From an uncultured Desulfobacterales bacterium (GTDB lineage Bacteria > Desulfobacterota > Dissulfuribacteria > Dissulfuribacterales > S140-46): a stretch of DNA of 64,000 nt. The notes under the pieces are model-generated. The model was not told the origin of the DNA. It saw only the letters and a program-made list of their open reading frames with translations, and made no database searches. Both the position numbers and the translations under genes were made by a program. Numbering within the stretch: position 1 is the first letter of the stretch; each line of letters starts with the position of its first letter. Of the stretch, positions 139 through 13,111 are shown in pieces. The stretch is from contig CAZUIH010000002.1 in NCBI GenBank assembly GCA_964620365.1, positions 1,598 through 65,597 on the forward strand, in the 5' to 3' direction.

Positions 139-464
139 GTTGTATTCCTCCTCTTTGCTAAAAAATTGTCTTTCAGGGTCATATCTCCCGATAAATTGGA
201 TAAAACTGGTTGTTTGCCCATGATGCAGTTAGAGCGTTGGACAGGCTAAAGACGCAAAAAAAATGCCAGAGGACGGCAGTCAATATTTTAGGTAAGCATT
301 TCAGTTAGTTATAAACTATTTTTTTAAAAAGGAGATTCCGTGAACCTGGATACTGATTTGCAATTATGTGAAGTTTCCTGCAATCTTGTGGGGCAGCAGG
401 ACGTTTTTGTAGATGGATCGAAAATCATTTCCAATCCATAAGGGTGACCGGATTCATCAAGTCC

Positions 465-1262
465 TCAAGGCCGGTTTTTATATATATTTTCGTAATGTAT
501 GCTCCCTTCCTCTGAGATAATCCTTCTTCCTGCAAGATGGGCAGCAGCCATGGAGCCCAGGCCGTTAGCAGCAGCAAGCATGAACATAACGACTATCTGG
601 TAACCCACGGCCTGAAGCGGCGGGACACCTGCCAATATCTGTCCAGTCATTATCCCTGGCAAAGACACGATGCCAACCACGCTCATGTTGTTTATGATGG
701 GTATCATGCCGGTTCTTACCGCCATCTGGACGGGCCTTATCAAGGTCTCCTTCCTGGTTGCCCCGAAGGACAAAAAGAGTTCCAGCTCTGCCCGCCGGGT
801 AACCACGAATTCCATGAAGCGGTCAAGCCCCAGCGATACCCCGTTAAGGGAATTGCCGAAAATCATTCCGAGAAGAGGAATTACATACCTCGCATTGTAC
901 CAAGGTTTGACACCTATGATTCCCTGGGTGACGACTGTACCGATAATCAAGGACGAAAAGGCCATGGTCAGCCACGCGTCAAATTGTATGCCTTTATATT
1001 TCCAGTGGGTCCTGGAGACAGCCTCCTTGCCTGAAAAAAAGACCATGATCGCAAGCCAGGTTAACACCGGGACGGGATTGCTGAAGCTGATCACCTTGTC
1101 AAGGATTATCCCAACCATCCCGAGCTGGAGCACACATCTAAGGGCTGCCCAAAACAGTCTTTTTTCCAGTTTTGCCTTGAGAAAAATGGAGATCAGGGCT
1201 GCCCCCACAACAAGTAGCGCGGCTATGGTGAGGTCAATAAGATCCAGTCTGACGTAGGTCAT
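465..1262 (-). CDS. fetB: iron export ABC transporter permease, FetB/YbbM (UPF0014) family
   Basis: 265 aa polytopic membrane protein. Long stretches resemble E. coli YbbM as recalled (VSLPGIMTGQILAG, GATRKE). It overlaps the upstream ATPase gene by 4 nt. Confidence 0.75.
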   Translation of the reverse strand: MTYVRLDLIDLTIAALLVVGAALISIFLKAKLEKRLFWAALRCVLQLGMVGIILDKVISFSNPVPVLTWLAIMVFFSGKEAVSRTHWKYKGIQFDAWLTMAFSSLIIGTVVTQGIIGVKPWYNARYVIPLLGMIFGNSLNGVSLGLDRFMEFVVTRRAELELFLSFGATRKETLIRPVQMAVRTGMIPIINNMSVVGIVSLPGIMTGQILAGVPPLQAVGYQIVVMFMLAAANGLGSMAAAHLAGRRIISEEGSIHYENIYKNRP

Positions 1263-1921
1263 CTAACTTGCATCTCGAGGTGTCCGTTTACAAGGGTCAT
1301 CCTGATAGGACCTTCAAGGCTGGTGTCATGACTTACACACAGTACGGCCTTGCCCGGTCTTTCAGAAAAAAACTTCAACAATTCATAACATAGCCGGGCA
1401 TTTTCCTGGTCCAGCCCGGAAAATGGTTCATCGGCCAAGATTACATCAGGCTCCCACAAAAGCGCCCTTACCAATGCTAGCCTGTGCCTTTCCCCTCCAG
1501 ACAGTGTTTCAACAGCCCTGTCAAAGTTAAGATGGCCCAGGCCGGTCATCTCCATTAGTTCCCTTGCCCTTTTTCCTGAATAGGTCCTCTCGCCTGTATT
1601 ACTGAAAGAAAAGGGGAACTTTAGATTTTGCTCCACGTTCCCAAGCAGCATCGGGGCCTCCTGCCCCATGAGAAGTACCCTGGAACGCCATCCGCAAAGA
1701 TCCCTGGTGTCAAATCTCCTGCCTTTTAAAATGCGTTTTATCCCTGTTCCAGCCACCAGACCTGTTACCTGGCGCAAAAGGGTAGACTTGCCGCTCCCCG
1801 ACGGACCCACTAGGGTAACAAAGGCATTTTCGCGAAGATCGAGCTCTACATCCTTAAAGAGGATATCTCCGGTATCCCTGCTTGAAGTGAGAGGTCCGCA
1901 GAAAAAAAAGGTCCTGTTCAT
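1259..1921 (-). CDS. fetA: ABC transporter ATP-binding protein, FetA/YbbL-like
   Basis: Walker A GPSGSGKST, ABC signature LSGGERHR, Walker B ILADEP. Translationally coupled to the FetB-like permease. Confidence 0.75.
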   Translation of the reverse strand: MNRTFFFCGPLTSSRDTGDILFKDVELDLRENAFVTLVGPSGSGKSTLLRQVTGLVAGTGIKRILKGRRFDTRDLCGWRSRVLLMGQEAPMLLGNVEQNLKFPFSFSNTGERTYSGKRARELMEMTGLGHLNFDRAVETLSGGERHRLALVRALLWEPDVILADEPFSGLDQENARLCYELLKFFSERPGKAVLCVSHDTSLEGPIRMTLVNGHLEMQVR

Positions 1922-1930
1922 TCACTGCCT

Positions 1931-3064
1931 CTAGCGGCACATCGATTCTTTTCCCTTCTCGGTTTGTTTACCTTTCAACAATTCTATAAAGGCGTTGTCT
2001 GGTACAATGGCCTCTTCATTTTCGTTTTTTGAGAGCCGGCTTGTCTCCCTTTTCTTTTTTGCCCTTTCCACGGCCCTTAAAAATGGATTTGTTTCCACTG
2101 CCTTGGCGCGCATCTTCTGGTCAGCGTGAGAGACCTCATTGTACACCTTCTTTCTCGTCTCGGCGATTTTTTGCAACGCCTCCTGGTCGACTGGTAATGA
2201 AGAATCAAGGAGCACCTGCCTGGTATCAAAAGATACGATTTTGCCGGTGCCATCCAGTGTCAGTTCTGCGACTCCAATGGATTTTCCCTTGGGCAGGGTC
2301 CGAAGAAGGTACACATCACCTATTTTCATGGACTTGTAATAACTGCTGCCAGGCCCCCCGCTTATTATCAAGTCAATTTCCTTTTCCTTGTAGGCCATAC
2401 GCTTGTCCAGATTTTCCCCAAGATTTGACAGGACCACAACGAGGTCGGCCTTTTTTCTCAGCTCAGGAAGGACCCTGTGCAATCCATCCATTGGTTCCGT
2501 TACTTCCAGGCCTTGGGCACGATATGGTCCTGAAGTAAGGGCCGTCAGACCAATGGTCACCCCATCAACGTCTATTGTCACATATTTTTTGAAGGCCTTT
2601 TGTGACCCTGACTTGATGTTTGCAGACAGAAAAACAAGCTTTCTCTTTGCGGCCTCTGCCTCCAAAAAGCCTGGTGACGCAAGGTCCCTCCTCCCGATAC
2701 CGGCCACTGCGTAGCCCATCTCATCGTAGAACTGGAGCATAAGCCTTGCGGTGTCGACCTCCCTGGCAGAATGAATGTTGTAAGATTTGAAGAGGAAATC
2801 CCCTGCCTCTACAAGAAGTGAGCTTCCATCTTTCTTCACGTTGTCTCGGATCCACCTGATCCGCCGGGCAATGCCTCCGATTTCCTTACCCTTTCACGTA
2901 GAACAGGGCCTGAGATAGCCCCACGTGTTACCAGTAAAATAAATCGTAATTTTTTTCTGATCTTTGGTATTGGCTAAGGCTGGAGAAACAATCAAGGCAA
3001 TGGAAAAAACGACAAAAACAAAGACCGCGTATGGCCTGAACGAAACACTTTTTGTCAAAAACAT
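1931..3064 (-). CDS. periplasmic degenerate metallophosphoesterase/5'-nucleotidase-like protein, candidate selenoprotein (UGA codon 57, C-x-x-U)
   Basis: The track ORF 1931..2839 continues upstream in the same frame for 75 codons. That reaches ATG 3064, which has an AAAGAGGT SD and encodes signal peptide MFLTKSVSFRPYAVFVFVVFSIALIVSPALA. The only interruption is TGA at 2896..2894, in the context YLRPCST-U-KGKEIGGIARR. Confidence 0.6.
2847..2863 (-). other. candidate SECIS-like hairpin for the 1931..3064 gene
   Basis: mRNA sense CGGAUC-AGGUG-GAUCCG: a perfect 6 bp stem with a 5 nt GGU-containing loop. The stem starts 30 nt after the UGA. Confidence 0.4.
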
Positions 3065-3173
3065 GCGATACCTCTTTCTGGCAAGGTTATGAATTTAAAA
3101 CAAACAATTGAAGTACAAGAAGTAGGACTACTTCATGCCTCCCGCCTCGCATCTTCGGCGAACTAACCGACTC

Positions 3174-3223: not shown

Positions 3224-3844
3224 TTAATCATCGGCGGTTCCCCGAGTCTGATCTTCCTTTTTAATCAATTCCCTCATCCACCACGCAGCCCAGTGTTCAT
3301 CGAGAATGGCATCGGCCAAGGCCTTGGCCTCTTTTGTAACGAGCCTGGCCTTCACATGGGGAATCCACATCTTTGCGTCCGTGCTGCCGGTATCAAGATG
3401 TTCTTTTAAAGACAGCAGCATGTCCAGCTGGTCGCAGTCCCTCGCGATCCTGGCCTCAACAGACTCTCCCGACTCGAATTCCTCCAGCAGATCCACAATC
3501 TCTTCTCCACCGGGCAACCCCTTGGTCATATCAAGGGAAGCCTTTTTCTCATCTCTCGTCACGTATCGTTTGTGAACGGCATTGGCATCGCCTGTCCTCG
3601 CCTCGGGCAGATCATGCACAAGGCAGAGTTTTAGAAGGCGCTCGACATCCACTTCTTCGTCAAATTCTTTGGCTAGCGTCATGGCTATCAGCATCATCCC
3701 AAACGTATGGGCGGCAACAGACTCCCGGCCCTGACCCAAAAAGGCATATCCCGTGCGCCAGACCCTTTTGAGCATGGAACCCTCAAATAAAAAGCTGGCC
3801 ATTCTCTTAAGCTTTCTCTTACTCATTTTCCCAGGCATTCCCAA
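3224..3844 (-). CDS. HD-domain phosphohydrolase (YfbR-like 5'-deoxynucleotidase family)
   Basis: HD motif in CLVHDLPEARTGD, with the upstream H in VAAHTFGM. The length is typical of the family. Confidence 0.75.
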   Translation of the reverse strand: MGMPGKMSKRKLKRMASFLFEGSMLKRVWRTGYAFLGQGRESVAAHTFGMMLIAMTLAKEFDEEVDVERLLKLCLVHDLPEARTGDANAVHKRYVTRDEKKASLDMTKGLPGGEEIVDLLEEFESGESVEARIARDCDQLDMLLSLKEHLDTGSTDAKMWIPHVKARLVTKEAKALADAILDEHWAAWWMRELIKKEDQTRGTADD

Positions 3845-9546: not shown

Positions 9547-10287
9547 TTACCTGTCTTGATACTTATTTTCAAAGTATGGACACAGTTCCATCCTGCAACC
9601 GTGGGGATGACGCTCTATGTGTCTGCAAGACGAAATGTTGGTCGAACCACCCAGATACAACCCAAAATTGGCCGCAAAAAATTTTACAGCCTCGTCAATG
9701 GCACTCCTCACATAAGCCTTACAGCAACTAGGCCCGGTAAGTTCCTTTATCGCCAGAGCCACAGAACATGCCATGTCCATGGCAAGATACTGTTCTTCAT
9801 TACTGCCACACTTAGAAGAAAGGATAACAGCCACACAGGCCCCCATGGCCACCACTATGCCGCAAACTCCCGTAAGGCCGCAATATCCGCTTATTGCCTG
9901 CCTTTGGATGCGGTCAAAAACCTCTTCCATGTGCGAATCACGCACTCTTATTGTACCTTCATTTTTTAGGGCCGCAATTAATGAACCCGCCGCGATATAC
10001 GCATGGTGGCACCCAAGCATTGGCAGAGAAGGAATGTTAATGAGATATTCAGAGATCTCAAACGGGTCAGCAGAATCAGATGCAAGGCAATATTCCCTTA
10101 TTACTCGCAGGGACTCTTTATTGTGACAATTTTCACACAAGAAATGTCCATTGGGACAGACCACATGGCCTGATTCTACCCTGCCACACCTGGTACACCT
10201 GTACTCGTGACCATATTCCAGGTAAGTAAGCGGGCTGCCACAGACCATGCAGTTATCCACTACCGCCATCCTGCCTGGCACTTTCAA
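9547..10287 (-). CDS. Cys-rich conserved hypothetical protein with N-terminal zinc ribbon (possibly DUF5714-like)
   Basis: CMVCGSPL...CTRCG...CPNGHFLCENC ribbon, followed by a Cys-rich helical body. The family name is from memory only. Confidence 0.45.
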   Translation of the reverse strand: MKVPGRMAVVDNCMVCGSPLTYLEYGHEYRCTRCGRVESGHVVCPNGHFLCENCHNKESLRVIREYCLASDSADPFEISEYLINIPSLPMLGCHHAYIAAGSLIAALKNEGTIRVRDSHMEEVFDRIQRQAISGYCGLTGVCGIVVAMGACVAVILSSKCGSNEEQYLAMDMACSVALAIKELTGPSCCKAYVRSAIDEAVKFFAANFGLYLGGSTNISSCRHIERHPHGCRMELCPYFENKYQDR

Positions 10288-10402: not shown

Positions 10403-11590
10403 TCAGAAGCCCGCAGCTACCTGGAAGGTCAAGATCAGGTGATCCTGGACAGGAAAGGGGCTACTTTTCTCTTCTTCCTGGTCCACGTAGGTTAAATCAA
10501 CACTAAGCTTGTTTGCCTGGCCCTTCAGGAAATAATTGACTCCAAGGCCGTAGATGTTAGTTGAATCCTTGTTATCGACACCTATACGTTCATAGTGTAT
10601 GAAAGGCTGTACACGCCCTACCCCAACCTTTCCAGGCAAGATATATCCTGATTTTACAGAAACGATGTCTGCGTCATCCCCTTGTTTTAAATTCGTATAA
10701 TTAAGAGAATTGGGGCCACTGTTGACGTTTATGTATGCCGCTTCCATTGTTATGGCACCGCCACTTGGATCCAAGGGATAATCCCAGTGTACATCAACGG
10801 TCCAAGCGGAATAATCATGTCTCGACCCGTCATAAACAAGGTCATTCTGCATATCGAAGCCCATTCCAAGGGCCAGCACCCGCTTTTTACCTAGATAGGT
10901 GCCTTTATTGAACCAGGAGGTCTCTGGCTCGAAAAAGGACCAGCTCAGGCGCCCGGCGTATCTTGGATTGTCGTCTGGATTCATGGTATCCTTATCTATA
11001 CCCTTGGCCACCATGAAACGGTATTGCAGTCTCTTGCCCAGCACGTTCCCCCAGAGGCAAACGCCATCGTCTCTACCAACCTTGCTGGGATAGAAAATAC
11101 CGCCCCTGATACCGCCCTGGCTCCAGTCAAGGTCAGTTGCCAGAAGACTTTTTGTCGACGTGGTACCGTAATTCCTTGTGATCGGCACATACATCCGTCC
11201 CAGTTGTAGCATAGCTGACTCATCCAAAAGCCTGACGGTAACCCAGCCGTCCCTCAATATGAGATTGGCCCCAAGCCCCAGGCTTGGCCTGTCATGCAGC
11301 TCATCCTGGTCCAACCTGTCCCCCGCGACGTGGAGAAAAAAATCAAGCCATGGAGTCGCAGAGGCCTTGGCGTAAAAATAGGCCCGCCTGATCATGGTAT
11401 CATACAGGGCTGTTTCTTGTTTTCCGTCGCCGTCACGGTCCTTGGCATCTTCGACATATTGGTACCAGGCCTGCCCCCAGAACCCCATTTCCAACGAAAG
11501 ATCGCCGTTTTTATAGATCTTAGTGGCCCATGCGTGGTCCGTACAGACAACAACCATAAATAAGAGTGTGACCCAAAACCGTATTTTCAT
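10403..11590 (-). CDS. outer-membrane beta-barrel porin
   Basis: ATG 11590 follows GGAGTGGAGGGAAG. Signal peptide MKIRFWVTLLFMVVVCTDHAWA, alternating beta-strand pattern, and C-terminal ...FQVAAGF ending in Phe. The track start at 11608 is probably too long. Confidence 0.6.
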   Translation of the reverse strand: MKIRFWVTLLFMVVVCTDHAWATKIYKNGDLSLEMGFWGQAWYQYVEDAKDRDGDGKQETALYDTMIRRAYFYAKASATPWLDFFLHVAGDRLDQDELHDRPSLGLGANLILRDGWVTVRLLDESAMLQLGRMYVPITRNYGTTSTKSLLATDLDWSQGGIRGGIFYPSKVGRDDGVCLWGNVLGKRLQYRFMVAKGIDKDTMNPDDNPRYAGRLSWSFFEPETSWFNKGTYLGKKRVLALGMGFDMQNDLVYDGSRHDYSAWTVDVHWDYPLDPSGGAITMEAAYINVNSGPNSLNYTNLKQGDDADIVSVKSGYILPGKVGVGRVQPFIHYERIGVDNKDSTNIYGLGVNYFLKGQANKLSVDLTYVDQEEEKSSPFPVQDHLILTFQVAAGF

Positions 11591-11633
11591 ATCTTCCCTC
11601 CACTCCATCCCAGAGCGGTTACCTCACCGCATC

Positions 11634-11969
11634 CTAATCAGGAATGGGCTCTGCCCCGTGCCTTATGACCGCCTTTAACATCTCATCTTCTGAGGCAACA
11701 CCATTTCCCGCACCCTTGTCTACGGCTATAATTTCATCGTCCACCTTCACGGCAGGCGAAGCGGGATCCTTCGGGCCCATGAGATCCTGGGGAGTGACAA
11801 TAAGCCTGACGCCGGTTACCTGTTCCAGAACGCTTACAGCGGCCTCAAGGTTTCGGGCTCACCGTCCTCCCATTGGAGACCTCGTATACAGCTTTAGATC
11901 AACAGCCTGGGCGGAGATGGTAATTAACAGAACCATCAAAAAAACAGTGAACGCTAAAAAATTTCTCAT
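11634..11969 (-). CDS. secreted thioredoxin-fold protein (MTH895/TM0996-like), candidate selenoprotein (UGA codon 37)
   Basis: ATG 11969 sits 8 nt after AAGGAGGT. Signal peptide MRNFLAFTVFLMVLLITISAQA. TGA at 11861..11859 in SPMGGR-U-ARNLEAAV. The frame then stays open for 74 more codons, including a cis-Pro-like PASPAVKVDDEII and VASEDEMLKAV as in glutaredoxin-like MTH895 proteins. Not present in the ORF track. Confidence 0.55.
11812..11828 (-). other. candidate SECIS-like hairpin for the 11634..11969 gene
   Basis: mRNA sense CUGG-AACAGGUAA-CCGG (4 bp stem including one G.U). It starts 30 nt after the UGA, the same spacing as the 2863..2847 hairpin. Confidence 0.3.
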
Positions 11970-12296: not shown

Positions 12297-12737
12297 TCAA
12301 TTGTCTCCGCTTCTTTTGAGTAAAAAATGGACACTCTCTTCAGGCAACTTCAGCTGCCTTGCGATTTCCGTAGTCGAGGCACCTGGATTTTCCTTGATAA
12401 AATGTTCACACTCGGCTCGCACCATATCCAGCCAATCCTGGAACAAGACCACAAGTTCCTCCGAGGTTTCGGACGAAAGCTCATGGAGTATTCCCATTGC
12501 CCCGTAAAGATGATGACACATGTTTTGTGGATCGACACCTTCATCCATGCATTTGGCAATTCAGAGCTGAACCATACTGCCGATCTTGTCTTTTCCTGTT
12601 TGCCCCACCATCTCCACTACAAAGCTTCTTTTTTCTTCTTCAGAAAGAATGGAAAAGATCTCTTTGGCCAGATGGAGTAATAGATCCTTGCCCTCTTCCA
12701 AGGTCAATGACCTGATAATGTCACCCCATTTATCCAT
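12297..12737 (-). CDS. small helical protein with C-terminal HTH-like segment, candidate selenoprotein (UGA codon 59, U-x-x-x-C)
   Basis: ATG 12737 overlaps the arsR stop (TAATG). The frame is identical to track ORF 12297..12548 (189 nt = 63 codons upstream). The single TGA is at 12563..12561, in GSMVQL-U-IAKCMDEG. There is no SD in front of the internal ATG 12548. Confidence 0.5.
12528..12547 (-). other. candidate SECIS-like hairpin for the 12297..12737 gene
   Basis: mRNA sense UGGAU-GA-AGGUG-UCG-AUCCA: 5 bp outer stem plus 2 inner pairs, with an AGGUG apical loop. The stem starts 13 nt after the UGA and GGU lies about 22 nt after it. Confidence 0.4.
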
Positions 12738-13111
12738 TATTCCTCTCCTTTCGTTTGCTCTTGCTCCTGGATTATTCTCTTCACTTCAGCCACGAGAGCT
12801 GATTCGTCCAGGTCTGGATTTATTTCAGCGACCGCCCTTCCAAGAAATTTCAAAAGTCCTTTTGAGGCCAACCGGTAGTAGATAAATGGTCCTCTTCGTT
12901 CACTGACCAAGATATTCGCGTACCTGAATTCCTTTAGATGATGAGACACAAGGGGCTGAGACAATCCAAGACGATTGACTATCTCTGTCACAGAAAGAAA
13001 ACCACATTTCTCCAACGCGATACAAAGGATAATTTTTAATCGATTTTCATCGGATAGCGACTTGAAAAAATGCGCAAGCTCCTTGATAACGATTTTATTT
13101 GACCAGCCCAT
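12737..13111 (-). CDS. ArsR/SmtB-family transcriptional regulator
   Basis: wHTH segment LSVTEIVNRLGLSQPLVSHHLKEFRYANILVSERRGPFIYYRL; 124 aa. Confidence 0.85.
   Translation of the reverse strand: MGWSNKIVIKELAHFFKSLSDENRLKIILCIALEKCGFLSVTEIVNRLGLSQPLVSHHLKEFRYANILVSERRGPFIYYRLASKGLLKFLGRAVAEINPDLDESALVAEVKRIIQEQEQTKGEE

Follow-up and report, generated by a model that had tools for sequence, protein, structure and literature searches.

The window analysed here, a 64,000-nucleotide (nt) stretch of contig CAZUIH010000002.1 (positions 1,598 to 65,597) from an uncultured Desulfobacterales bacterium, carries on its minus strand, at 3064..1931, a reading frame broken by one TGA. Comparative sequence data indicate that this in-frame TGA is very probably a selenocysteine (Sec) codon and that the locus is a Sec-decoding gene. 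Our explanation of the whole locus, namely one gene spanning 3064..1931 for a secreted, degenerate 5'-nucleotidase-like selenoprotein, is likewise held with good confidence. The complete coding sequence (1931..3064) comprises 377 codons in a single frame, in which 56 sense codons from the ATG at 3064..3062 are followed by TGA (2896..2894) at codon 57, 320 sense codons and a TAG stop (1933..1931). The TGA, in the context GYLRPCST-*-KGKEIGGIARR, is the sole interruption, and a TGT codon (2903..2905) places Cys54 as the C of a C-x-x-U motif. A Shine-Dalgarno sequence, AAAGAGGT, could be read directly at 3070..3077, 6 nt before the ATG. By inspection, codons 1-31 (2972..3064) encode a signal peptide, MFLTKSVSFRPYAVFVFVVFSIALIVSPALA, of the Sec export type, which ends in SPALA with an AxA site and a predicted cleavage before N32; it contains no Tat RR motif and no lipobox Cys, and the signal peptides of the homologues have equivalent AxA sites. 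In the mechanical list of open reading frames (ORFs), the gene appears as two halves that share this frame, 2894..3064 (56 amino acids, ATG) and 1931..2839 (302 amino acids, GTG), and existing gene calls cover just the latter. The GTG lies exactly 75 codons below the ATG, and inspection of the sequence upstream of GTG 2839 revealed no Shine-Dalgarno sequence. The first-pass annotation of this DNA had proposed the upstream ATG with its ribosome-binding site, the signal peptide ending in ALA, the TGA as the only interruption and the poorly supported GTG start. Re-reading of the frame bore out each of these points, and all the coordinates that it gave were right. Run SRR5189949, as assembled independently by Logan (L018), matched the window without a difference over 321 nt, TGA included.

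The representative library was searched with the post-TGA parts of the protein, and a metagenome scan contributed 14 loci (L004-L017). The window, L001, L002 and L004-L013 form a clade of 13 loci with 36-46% amino acid identity. At the aligned codon, TGA, never TAA or TAG, was found in all 13, including ten out of ten close metagenome loci (L004-L013), and a signal peptide was encoded upstream in each. The two closest database proteins, P0002 and P0003 (36-39% identity), had been called from 'MGGIARR'; on their contigs, an in-frame signal-peptide ORF of 50-52 amino acids lies upstream and ends in TGA at the aligned codon. TGA occupied the same codon in three more distant loci, L014 (CPT-U), L015 and L016 (both PCG-U), while L017 reads PCGC at the Sec site. 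A Cys three residues before the TGA was present in 11 of the 13 clade loci. In L006 and L007 it is replaced by Tyr, encoded by TAT instead of TGT (L006:2159-2161 and L007:415-417), and the TGA and the hairpin described below are intact in both. The C-x-x-U pair of the first-pass annotation therefore held for the window and most of its relatives but is not an invariant feature. The partner Cys seems to be dispensable, and because two loci do without it, the pattern suggests that Sec itself, not the partner Cys, is the essential residue.

Relatives with Cys in place of Sec were identified at two evolutionary distances. The nearer one, P0023 (locus L019), came from the representative library and reads CPYC at the Sec position, with TGT at the UGA codon, and its gene order is that of the Sec loci (proC, holA, HD, this gene, Fer4/CCG, FtsJ, PurC). 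Since the Cys occupies the UGA position in the same synteny, this is an orthologous Cys/Sec exchange; the Cys gene itself (L019:3300-4442) looks like the product of a fairly recent Sec-to-Cys switch. It had been suggested beforehand that homologues spanning the junction, with Cys or Sec aligned to codon 57, would support the proposal, and both the conserved TGA and the CPYC of P0023 are of this kind. Further relatives were counted among the top 154 family representatives. Full-length proteins with CxC (28) or CxxC (6) just before GG[ILV]ARR numbered 34, in agreement with the paired-Cys homologues carrying GGLARR that the first-pass annotation had mentioned for Geobacter-type genomes. Another 113 gene calls had lost the N-terminus; truncation at a UGA would have this effect, and contig ends explain some of these. 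One database relative, P0079, reads DPCPTWGNRVIGGLARR, with Trp exactly at the Sec position of the clade (PCPTW); this Trp may represent a TGA translated under another code by the gene caller, or a real TGA-to-TGG change. The HD-domain, YfbR-like gene was found directly upstream in the window, L004, L006-L011, L013 and L019, i.e., in every locus with enough flanking sequence. Identity among loci was 64-72% for this HD-domain neighbour versus 35-41% for the selenoprotein, whose sequence is accordingly diverging at a much higher rate than those of its neighbours.

The RNA that follows the UGA provided a further line of evidence. A perfect 6-bp hairpin, CGGAUC-AGGUG-GAUCCG (2847..2863), begins 30 nt past the TGA, its loop lying 36 nt from the UGA, and is of the selenocysteine insertion sequence (SECIS) type. 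Its predicted free energy was -7.3 kcal/mol alone and -8.6 kcal/mol with one flanking base on each side; that of the clade consensus was -8.9 kcal/mol. In the 13-locus alignment, the six core pairs were formed in 98.7% of cells, and in a control in which the partner was slid by one column, pairing fell to 37-67%. The exchanges seen within the core pairs were G.U/A-U/G-C and U-A/U.G. RNAalifold added a closing C-G pair within the loop in 11 of the 13 sequences, as well as a flanking seventh pair, formed by two third-codon positions, that covaries (GU 7, GC 2, UG 1, CG 1) and is unpaired in the window and L001. Synonymous sites were compared among eight representatives of the clade. Outside the hairpin, none of the 21 fully conserved 4- or 6-fold degenerate codons had an invariant third base, the mean number of different third bases at these codons being 3.05. 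Within the stem, the Arg codon was CGG in all eight sequences and both Ile/Val codons ended in C in all eight, while the Arg codons directly before and after the stem each showed all four third bases. Synonymous sites are thus frozen in the stem and free to vary just outside it, which is a constraint at the RNA level. In the Cys orthologue L019, the peptide ARRVRWI has been kept, its codons have drifted (GCG AGA CGG GTC AGA TGG ATC ACA) and the hairpin has degenerated (to -2.4 kcal/mol, with AGAUG as its loop and GGU lost), although this is a single case.

The published bacterial SECIS (bSECIS) model specifies a loop of 3-9 nt, a stem of 4-16 bp, a G in the first two loop positions, a distance of 16-37 nt from the UGA to the loop and a minimum free energy of at most -7.5 kcal/mol (PMC13188914). 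The 5-nt AGGUG loop, the 6-bp stem and the 36-nt distance of the window hairpin lie within these limits. The hairpin proposed in the first-pass annotation is therefore present as described and, beyond that, conserved and compatible with published constraints. The other hairpin considered near the UGA, GGGUAA...UUGCCC, was rejected; it is weaker (-5.3 kcal/mol) and falls outside the model, with a 14-nt loop only 8 nt away. The PCGU-type loci L015 and L016 have, by inspection, a different hairpin 24 nt past the UGA. One of the two has GUAGCC-CGGCG-GGCUAC and the other GUGGCC-CGGCG-GGCCAC, the versions differing by a compensatory change from A-U to G-C.

The fold of the protein was examined with a profile built from three clade members. 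Its best match in the PDB was the Thermus thermophilus 5'-nucleotidase 2z1a (E = 1.4e-18), and the alignment crosses the TGA ('kvtiyytgntyGylkpC' versus 'TLTLVHTNDTHAHLEPV'), with FTGNTWGY of the window protein facing HTNDTHAH of 2z1a. Structural comparison relied on the AlphaFold2 model of the Cys orthologue P0023, not of the window protein itself (predicted local distance difference test score, 90.7; predicted TM-score, 0.84). In this model, strand beta1 (E28-35) is made up of the residues that precede the Cys pair, which itself lies in the loop before helix alpha1; the best Foldseek matches were 3ivd, 2z1a, CD73 and UshA, with a TM-score of about 0.62. Both approaches thus recovered a calcineurin-like metallophosphatase domain of the 5'-nucleotidase N-terminal type (approximately residues 38-300, 2165..2953). 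It is followed not by the C-terminal 5'-nucleotidase substrate-binding domain but by a Lys/Glu-rich tail of about 75 residues (approximately residues 301-377, 1934..2164) with a conserved NPF[LY] motif, in which N326, P327 and F328 are invariant in the alignments; the tail of P0023 was predicted to be helical with lower confidence.

In line with the earlier description of a catalytically degenerate metallophosphoesterase/5'-nucleotidase homologue, the metal-binding motifs (DxH, GD, GNH(D/E), H and GHxH) were largely absent. Compared with the canonical protein P0004, motif I changes from NDVHGH to GNTWGY (DxH to N-T-W), motif III from GNHD to GRRD (GNH to GRR), motif IV from LSHLG to LSNLG (H to N) and motif V from GGHSH to SGGPG (GHxH to GGPG). 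Only motif II (AGD in both proteins) is kept, so that its Asp (D89) is the one canonical metal ligand retained in the window protein; in most of the clade (L005-L013) even this residue is Asn. The 5'-nucleotidases (UshA 1ush, 2z1a, Escherichia coli c4898 3ivd and CD73) share the N-terminal calcineurin-like fold and a periplasmic or extracellular location with the window protein but differ from it in the motifs listed above, and in the snake-venom ecto-5'-nucleotidase a Cys (KCTGEDCYGGVARR) aligns with the Sec. As the metal motifs and the C-terminal domain have been lost, phosphoesterase activity is very unlikely, and hydrolysis of nucleotides would not be expected of a protein with this sequence.

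These features can be combined into a proposed mechanism. UGA codon 57 would be decoded as Sec through SelB acting on the hairpin at 2863..2847, whose loop contains a conserved GGU. The resulting 377-residue precursor would be translocated through the Sec pathway and cleaved after Ala31, giving a mature periplasmic protein with an N-terminal 5'-nucleotidase fold which, having lost the DxH, GNH, H and GHxH ligands and the C-terminal domain, would not act as a phosphoesterase. U57 would provide the reactive centre through its selenol, in most cases together with C54, and the pair would sit in the beta1-alpha1 loop, which in true nucleotidases starts with the DxH metal ligands. The job of the protein would then lie in selenol/thiol redox or sulfur-transfer chemistry in the periplasm, in connection with electron-transfer proteins. 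Several Cys-form relatives (P0070, P0281, P0283, P0128 and P0015) carry C-terminal multihaem cytochrome c domains (Cytochrome_C554, C7); P0015, which has two UshA-like domains, and P0103 are fused to thioredoxin/DsbA-like domains. Because of these fusions and of the CxxU/CxxC/CxC motif, we favour a periplasmic redox or sulfur-transfer role as the most likely function, with moderate confidence. Three points weigh on the other side. The case for redox chemistry is drawn from motif analogy and from fusions in distant relatives, two clade loci have no partner Cys, and the gene neighbourhood gave no functional clue, the conserved upstream proC-holA-HD genes being housekeeping synteny. A bolder version, which we put forward tentatively, would make the clade a third uncatalogued UshA-like subfamily in Dissulfuribacter-like Desulfobacterota, in which the dimetal site is gone, a lone Sec has become the new catalytic nucleophile with an optional partner Cys, and a cytochrome-wired periplasmic reaction involving sulfur, selenium or metalloid redox, undescribed for this fold, takes place.

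A different use of the same residues was also considered. The protein could be a selenoprotein whose Cys/Sec site binds a metal or metalloid through a new ligand set and does not undergo selenenylsulfide redox cycling. In favour of this, the site is in the loop at whose start the metal ligands once stood, two loci manage without the partner Cys, and the surroundings in the window include an MbdU-like gene, a TsoR regulator of the ArsR/SmtB type and, directly downstream, a FetAB-like exporter. The FetAB-like genes are, however, not conserved beside the orthologues, and the fusions of the relatives to cytochromes and thioredoxin-like domains point to electron transfer instead. We therefore consider a metal-binding site rather unlikely, though it deserves attention, and retain the redox or sulfur-transfer role as the working assignment of this selenoprotein.

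Whether the UGA is decoded as Sec at all has to be weighed against readthrough or recoding by a non-Sec residue (near-cognate Trp, Cys or Gly) and against use of the codon as a regulated termination site. The Trp recorded at this position in P0079 (PCPTW) would fit such recoding, and so would the failure to see the Sec machinery anywhere in the 64-kb window: neither selA, selB or selD (translations read by eye) nor any tRNA gene, hence no tRNA-Sec, was found there. Further observations count against Sec decoding. The evidence for Sec at codon 57 is at the level of nucleic acids, and many of the 13 clade loci are close relatives, so that their counts are not independent. The free energy of the lone hairpin (-7.3 kcal/mol) just misses the published limit, its 36-nt spacing sits at the upper edge of the allowed range, and no compensatory double change was seen within the six core pairs across the 13 loci. 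The 81-nt region folded no better than shuffled sequence (z = -0.57); as a single sequence the hairpin is unremarkable, and its significance therefore comes from the comparative data. Rfam contained no SECIS match at the gathering threshold in the window or at E <= 10 in 2780..2960, a result that carries no information, given how poorly the database covers bacterial SECIS elements of this type.

Against non-Sec recoding, a GGU-loop hairpin is conserved at SECIS distance and decays once Cys replaces the UGA, the full-length homologues carry Cys rather than Trp, and NCBI curates the family as a selenoprotein. TGA also ends 26 of the 60 ORFs in the window and is therefore not reassigned. Finally, members of other known selenoprotein families with in-frame TGA codons lie on the same contig. 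A TsoR-TsoA pair occupies 12297..13111 on the minus strand, both genes matching their NCBIfam models below the cut-offs. TsoR, an ArsR/SmtB regulator (12737..13111), scored 88 bits with NF045707 (cut-off 115), and the TsoA-like gene scored 124 bits with NF045695 (LULAXC motif selenoprotein TsoA; cut-off 170). The latter has an in-frame TGA (12563..12561) in the context GSMVQL-U-IAKC, which fits the LULAXC motif, and about 20 nt past it lies a hairpin that shares the AGGUG pentaloop of the UshA-like gene's element and resembles it in its GGAU/AUCC stem. A small TsoC-like gene with a signal peptide (11634..11966, minus strand) is likely to be the third selenoprotein gene in the window. Its TGA (11861..11859) stands in the context YTRSPMGGR-U-ARN, where P-x-G-x-x-U resembles the NEPxGxxU motif, and a GUA-loop hairpin lies 21 nt past it; its match to the model 'NEPxGxxU selenoprotein TsoC' is weak (16-17 bits; cut-off 45). 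Taken together, the TsoA-like and TsoC-like genes give good indirect support for the use of Sec in this organism, so far as gene sequences can indicate it. Non-Sec decoding of the UGA thus appears improbable, and we keep to the reading of codon 57 as Sec.

Two other genes on the same part of the contig were noted. A Cys-rich protein encoded at 9547..10287 (minus strand) matched the 'metal-binding double selenoprotein MbdU' model with 335 bits (cut-off 600), over positions 38-269 of the 468-position model only, and has no supported Sec codon; an upstream TGA (10326) was tried as such a codon and rejected, as the extension did not lengthen the family match. The adjoining gene (10403..11608, minus strand) encodes a porin like ExtI, the porin of a selenite/tellurite-reduction operon (135 bits; cut-off 150). 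The IlvD protein of the window is 81-82% identical to those of a Desulfobacteraceae metagenome-assembled genome and of Dissulfuribacter thermophilus, in keeping with an origin of the DNA from the Desulfobacterota.

Public gene callers treat the locus as two genes (P0001-P0003 and the neighbouring calls of 50-52 amino acids), which would correspond to a secreted peptide of 56 residues that stops at the TGA and a 302-residue cytoplasmic protein starting at GTG 2839 or nearby. However, the upstream piece contributes strand beta1 and the counterpart of motif I to the domain encoded downstream and aligns with residues 29-45 of 2z1a, the GTG is not preceded by a Shine-Dalgarno sequence, the downstream starts vary from locus to locus (TTG, GTG or ATG, at different codons) and the Cys orthologue is one continuous protein. 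Since both the homology and the orthologue model span the TGA, the two ORFs cannot be separate proteins, and we assign this arrangement a very low probability. A pseudogene or a sequencing or assembly error, in which a nonsense mutation or a miscalled base has split a Cys-containing gene, might be read from the two ORFs of the mechanical and public gene calls and from the existence of a Cys orthologue, but the presence of the same TGA in all 13 clade loci, which come from different samples, already refutes it for practical purposes; purifying selection on both halves, an identical independent Logan assembly and RNA-level constraint right after the TGA agree with this. The single selenoprotein gene at 3064..1931 consequently remains the explanation that we adopt.

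The immediate neighbours of this gene lie on the same strand. Upstream is the HD-domain, YfbR-like gene (3224..3844; 5'-deoxynucleotidase family). Downstream, after a gap of 7 nt, come FetA-like (1259..1921) and FetB-like (465..1262) iron-export ABC genes, which overlap each other by 4 nt and are followed by a terminator-like site at 278..264. The FetAB-like genes (465..1921) and the selenoprotein gene look like an operon in this organism only. A functional link to FetAB was considered and is not supported, because FetA/FetB-like genes occur next to the selenoprotein gene in the window only and are absent next to the orthologues, which have Fer4/CCG, FtsJ and PurC there. A scan for promoters and terminators yielded nothing above background near the selenoprotein gene.

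Every public copy of the gene examined carries a wrong annotation, either as the 302-residue ORF or from 'MGGIARR' onward, and among the closest 154 family representatives about three quarters are truncated in the same way; a model of the subfamily would repair many of these gene calls. The clade exemplifies how an enzyme fold can lose its metal site yet keep Sec in the adjacent loop, and the cytochrome and thioredoxin-like fusions of the Cys-form relatives offer a concrete lead on the function of UshA-like selenoproteins. The locus is also a clean teaching case for the recognition of SECIS elements, with synonymous sites that are frozen in the Sec forms and relaxed in the Cys orthologue. What is known of selenoprotein families is not changed in kind.

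Selenoproteins of this type are already on record, and the statement in the first-pass annotation that none was known in the family is outdated. A family named 'COG0737 UshA-like, CxU' was listed among the selenoproteins of the Global Ocean Sampling metagenomes in 2008 (PMC2398784) and likewise in PMC9312934, and 'UshA-like selenoprotein family 2, CxxU' is listed as GenBank-annotated (PMC13188914); no function is given for UshA-like selenoproteins in these three papers. As they have been catalogued since 2008, the kind of selenoprotein described here is already known. NCBIfam holds two corresponding models. With U replaced by C, the window protein scored highest with NF041198 (UshA-like, PCGU type; 153.9 bits, cut-off 275), followed by NF049981 (UshA-like family 2; 90.5 bits, cut-off 140), and the clade members tested scored 165-178 and 75-102 bits, respectively. 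Weak NCBIfam matches to SoxB and UshA ranked after these two selenoprotein models, and no Pfam domain, including PF00149 and PF02872, matched the U-to-C protein.

The closest parallels are thus the two selenoprotein families, each resembled in a different way. Like NF049981, the window protein is a short member of the same superfamily without the 5'-nucleotidase C-terminal domain, has the CxxU motif (C54-S-T-U57) and aligns with the model over residues 39-267; the whole clade nevertheless falls under the cut-off, and at 90.5 versus 140 bits the window protein is not a member by NCBI's own criterion. With NF041198 it shares a signal peptide and a Sec in the same loop before GG[ILV]ARR, and model positions 1-357 are matched in an alignment that spans the TGA. 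The differences are that the motif is CxU there and CxxU here, the window reading P-C-S-T-U where L015 and L016 have a true PCG-U, and that the loop from Sec to GG is one residue longer here; the match stops at position 357 of 519, the last ~160 model positions being absent. In addition, the SECIS hairpin of the clade lies 12 nt further downstream than that of L015/L016, and the PCGU relatives keep more of the metal-ligand residues (HTND, SHLG and partly GGH). SoxB (TIGR04486; PDB 2wdc), distantly related through the same fold, acts on sulfur compounds in the periplasm (42.5 bits, cut-off 550; E = 7.9e-10 for 2wdc), but it needs a dinuclear Mn site that is absent here, and no sox genes were found nearby. 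Because its members score below both cut-offs and have lost nearly all metal ligands and the C-terminal nucleotidase domain, the clade is, on present sequence comparisons, a divergent, uncatalogued subfamily of the known UshA-like selenoproteins, to which it is related and like which it would be expected to work.

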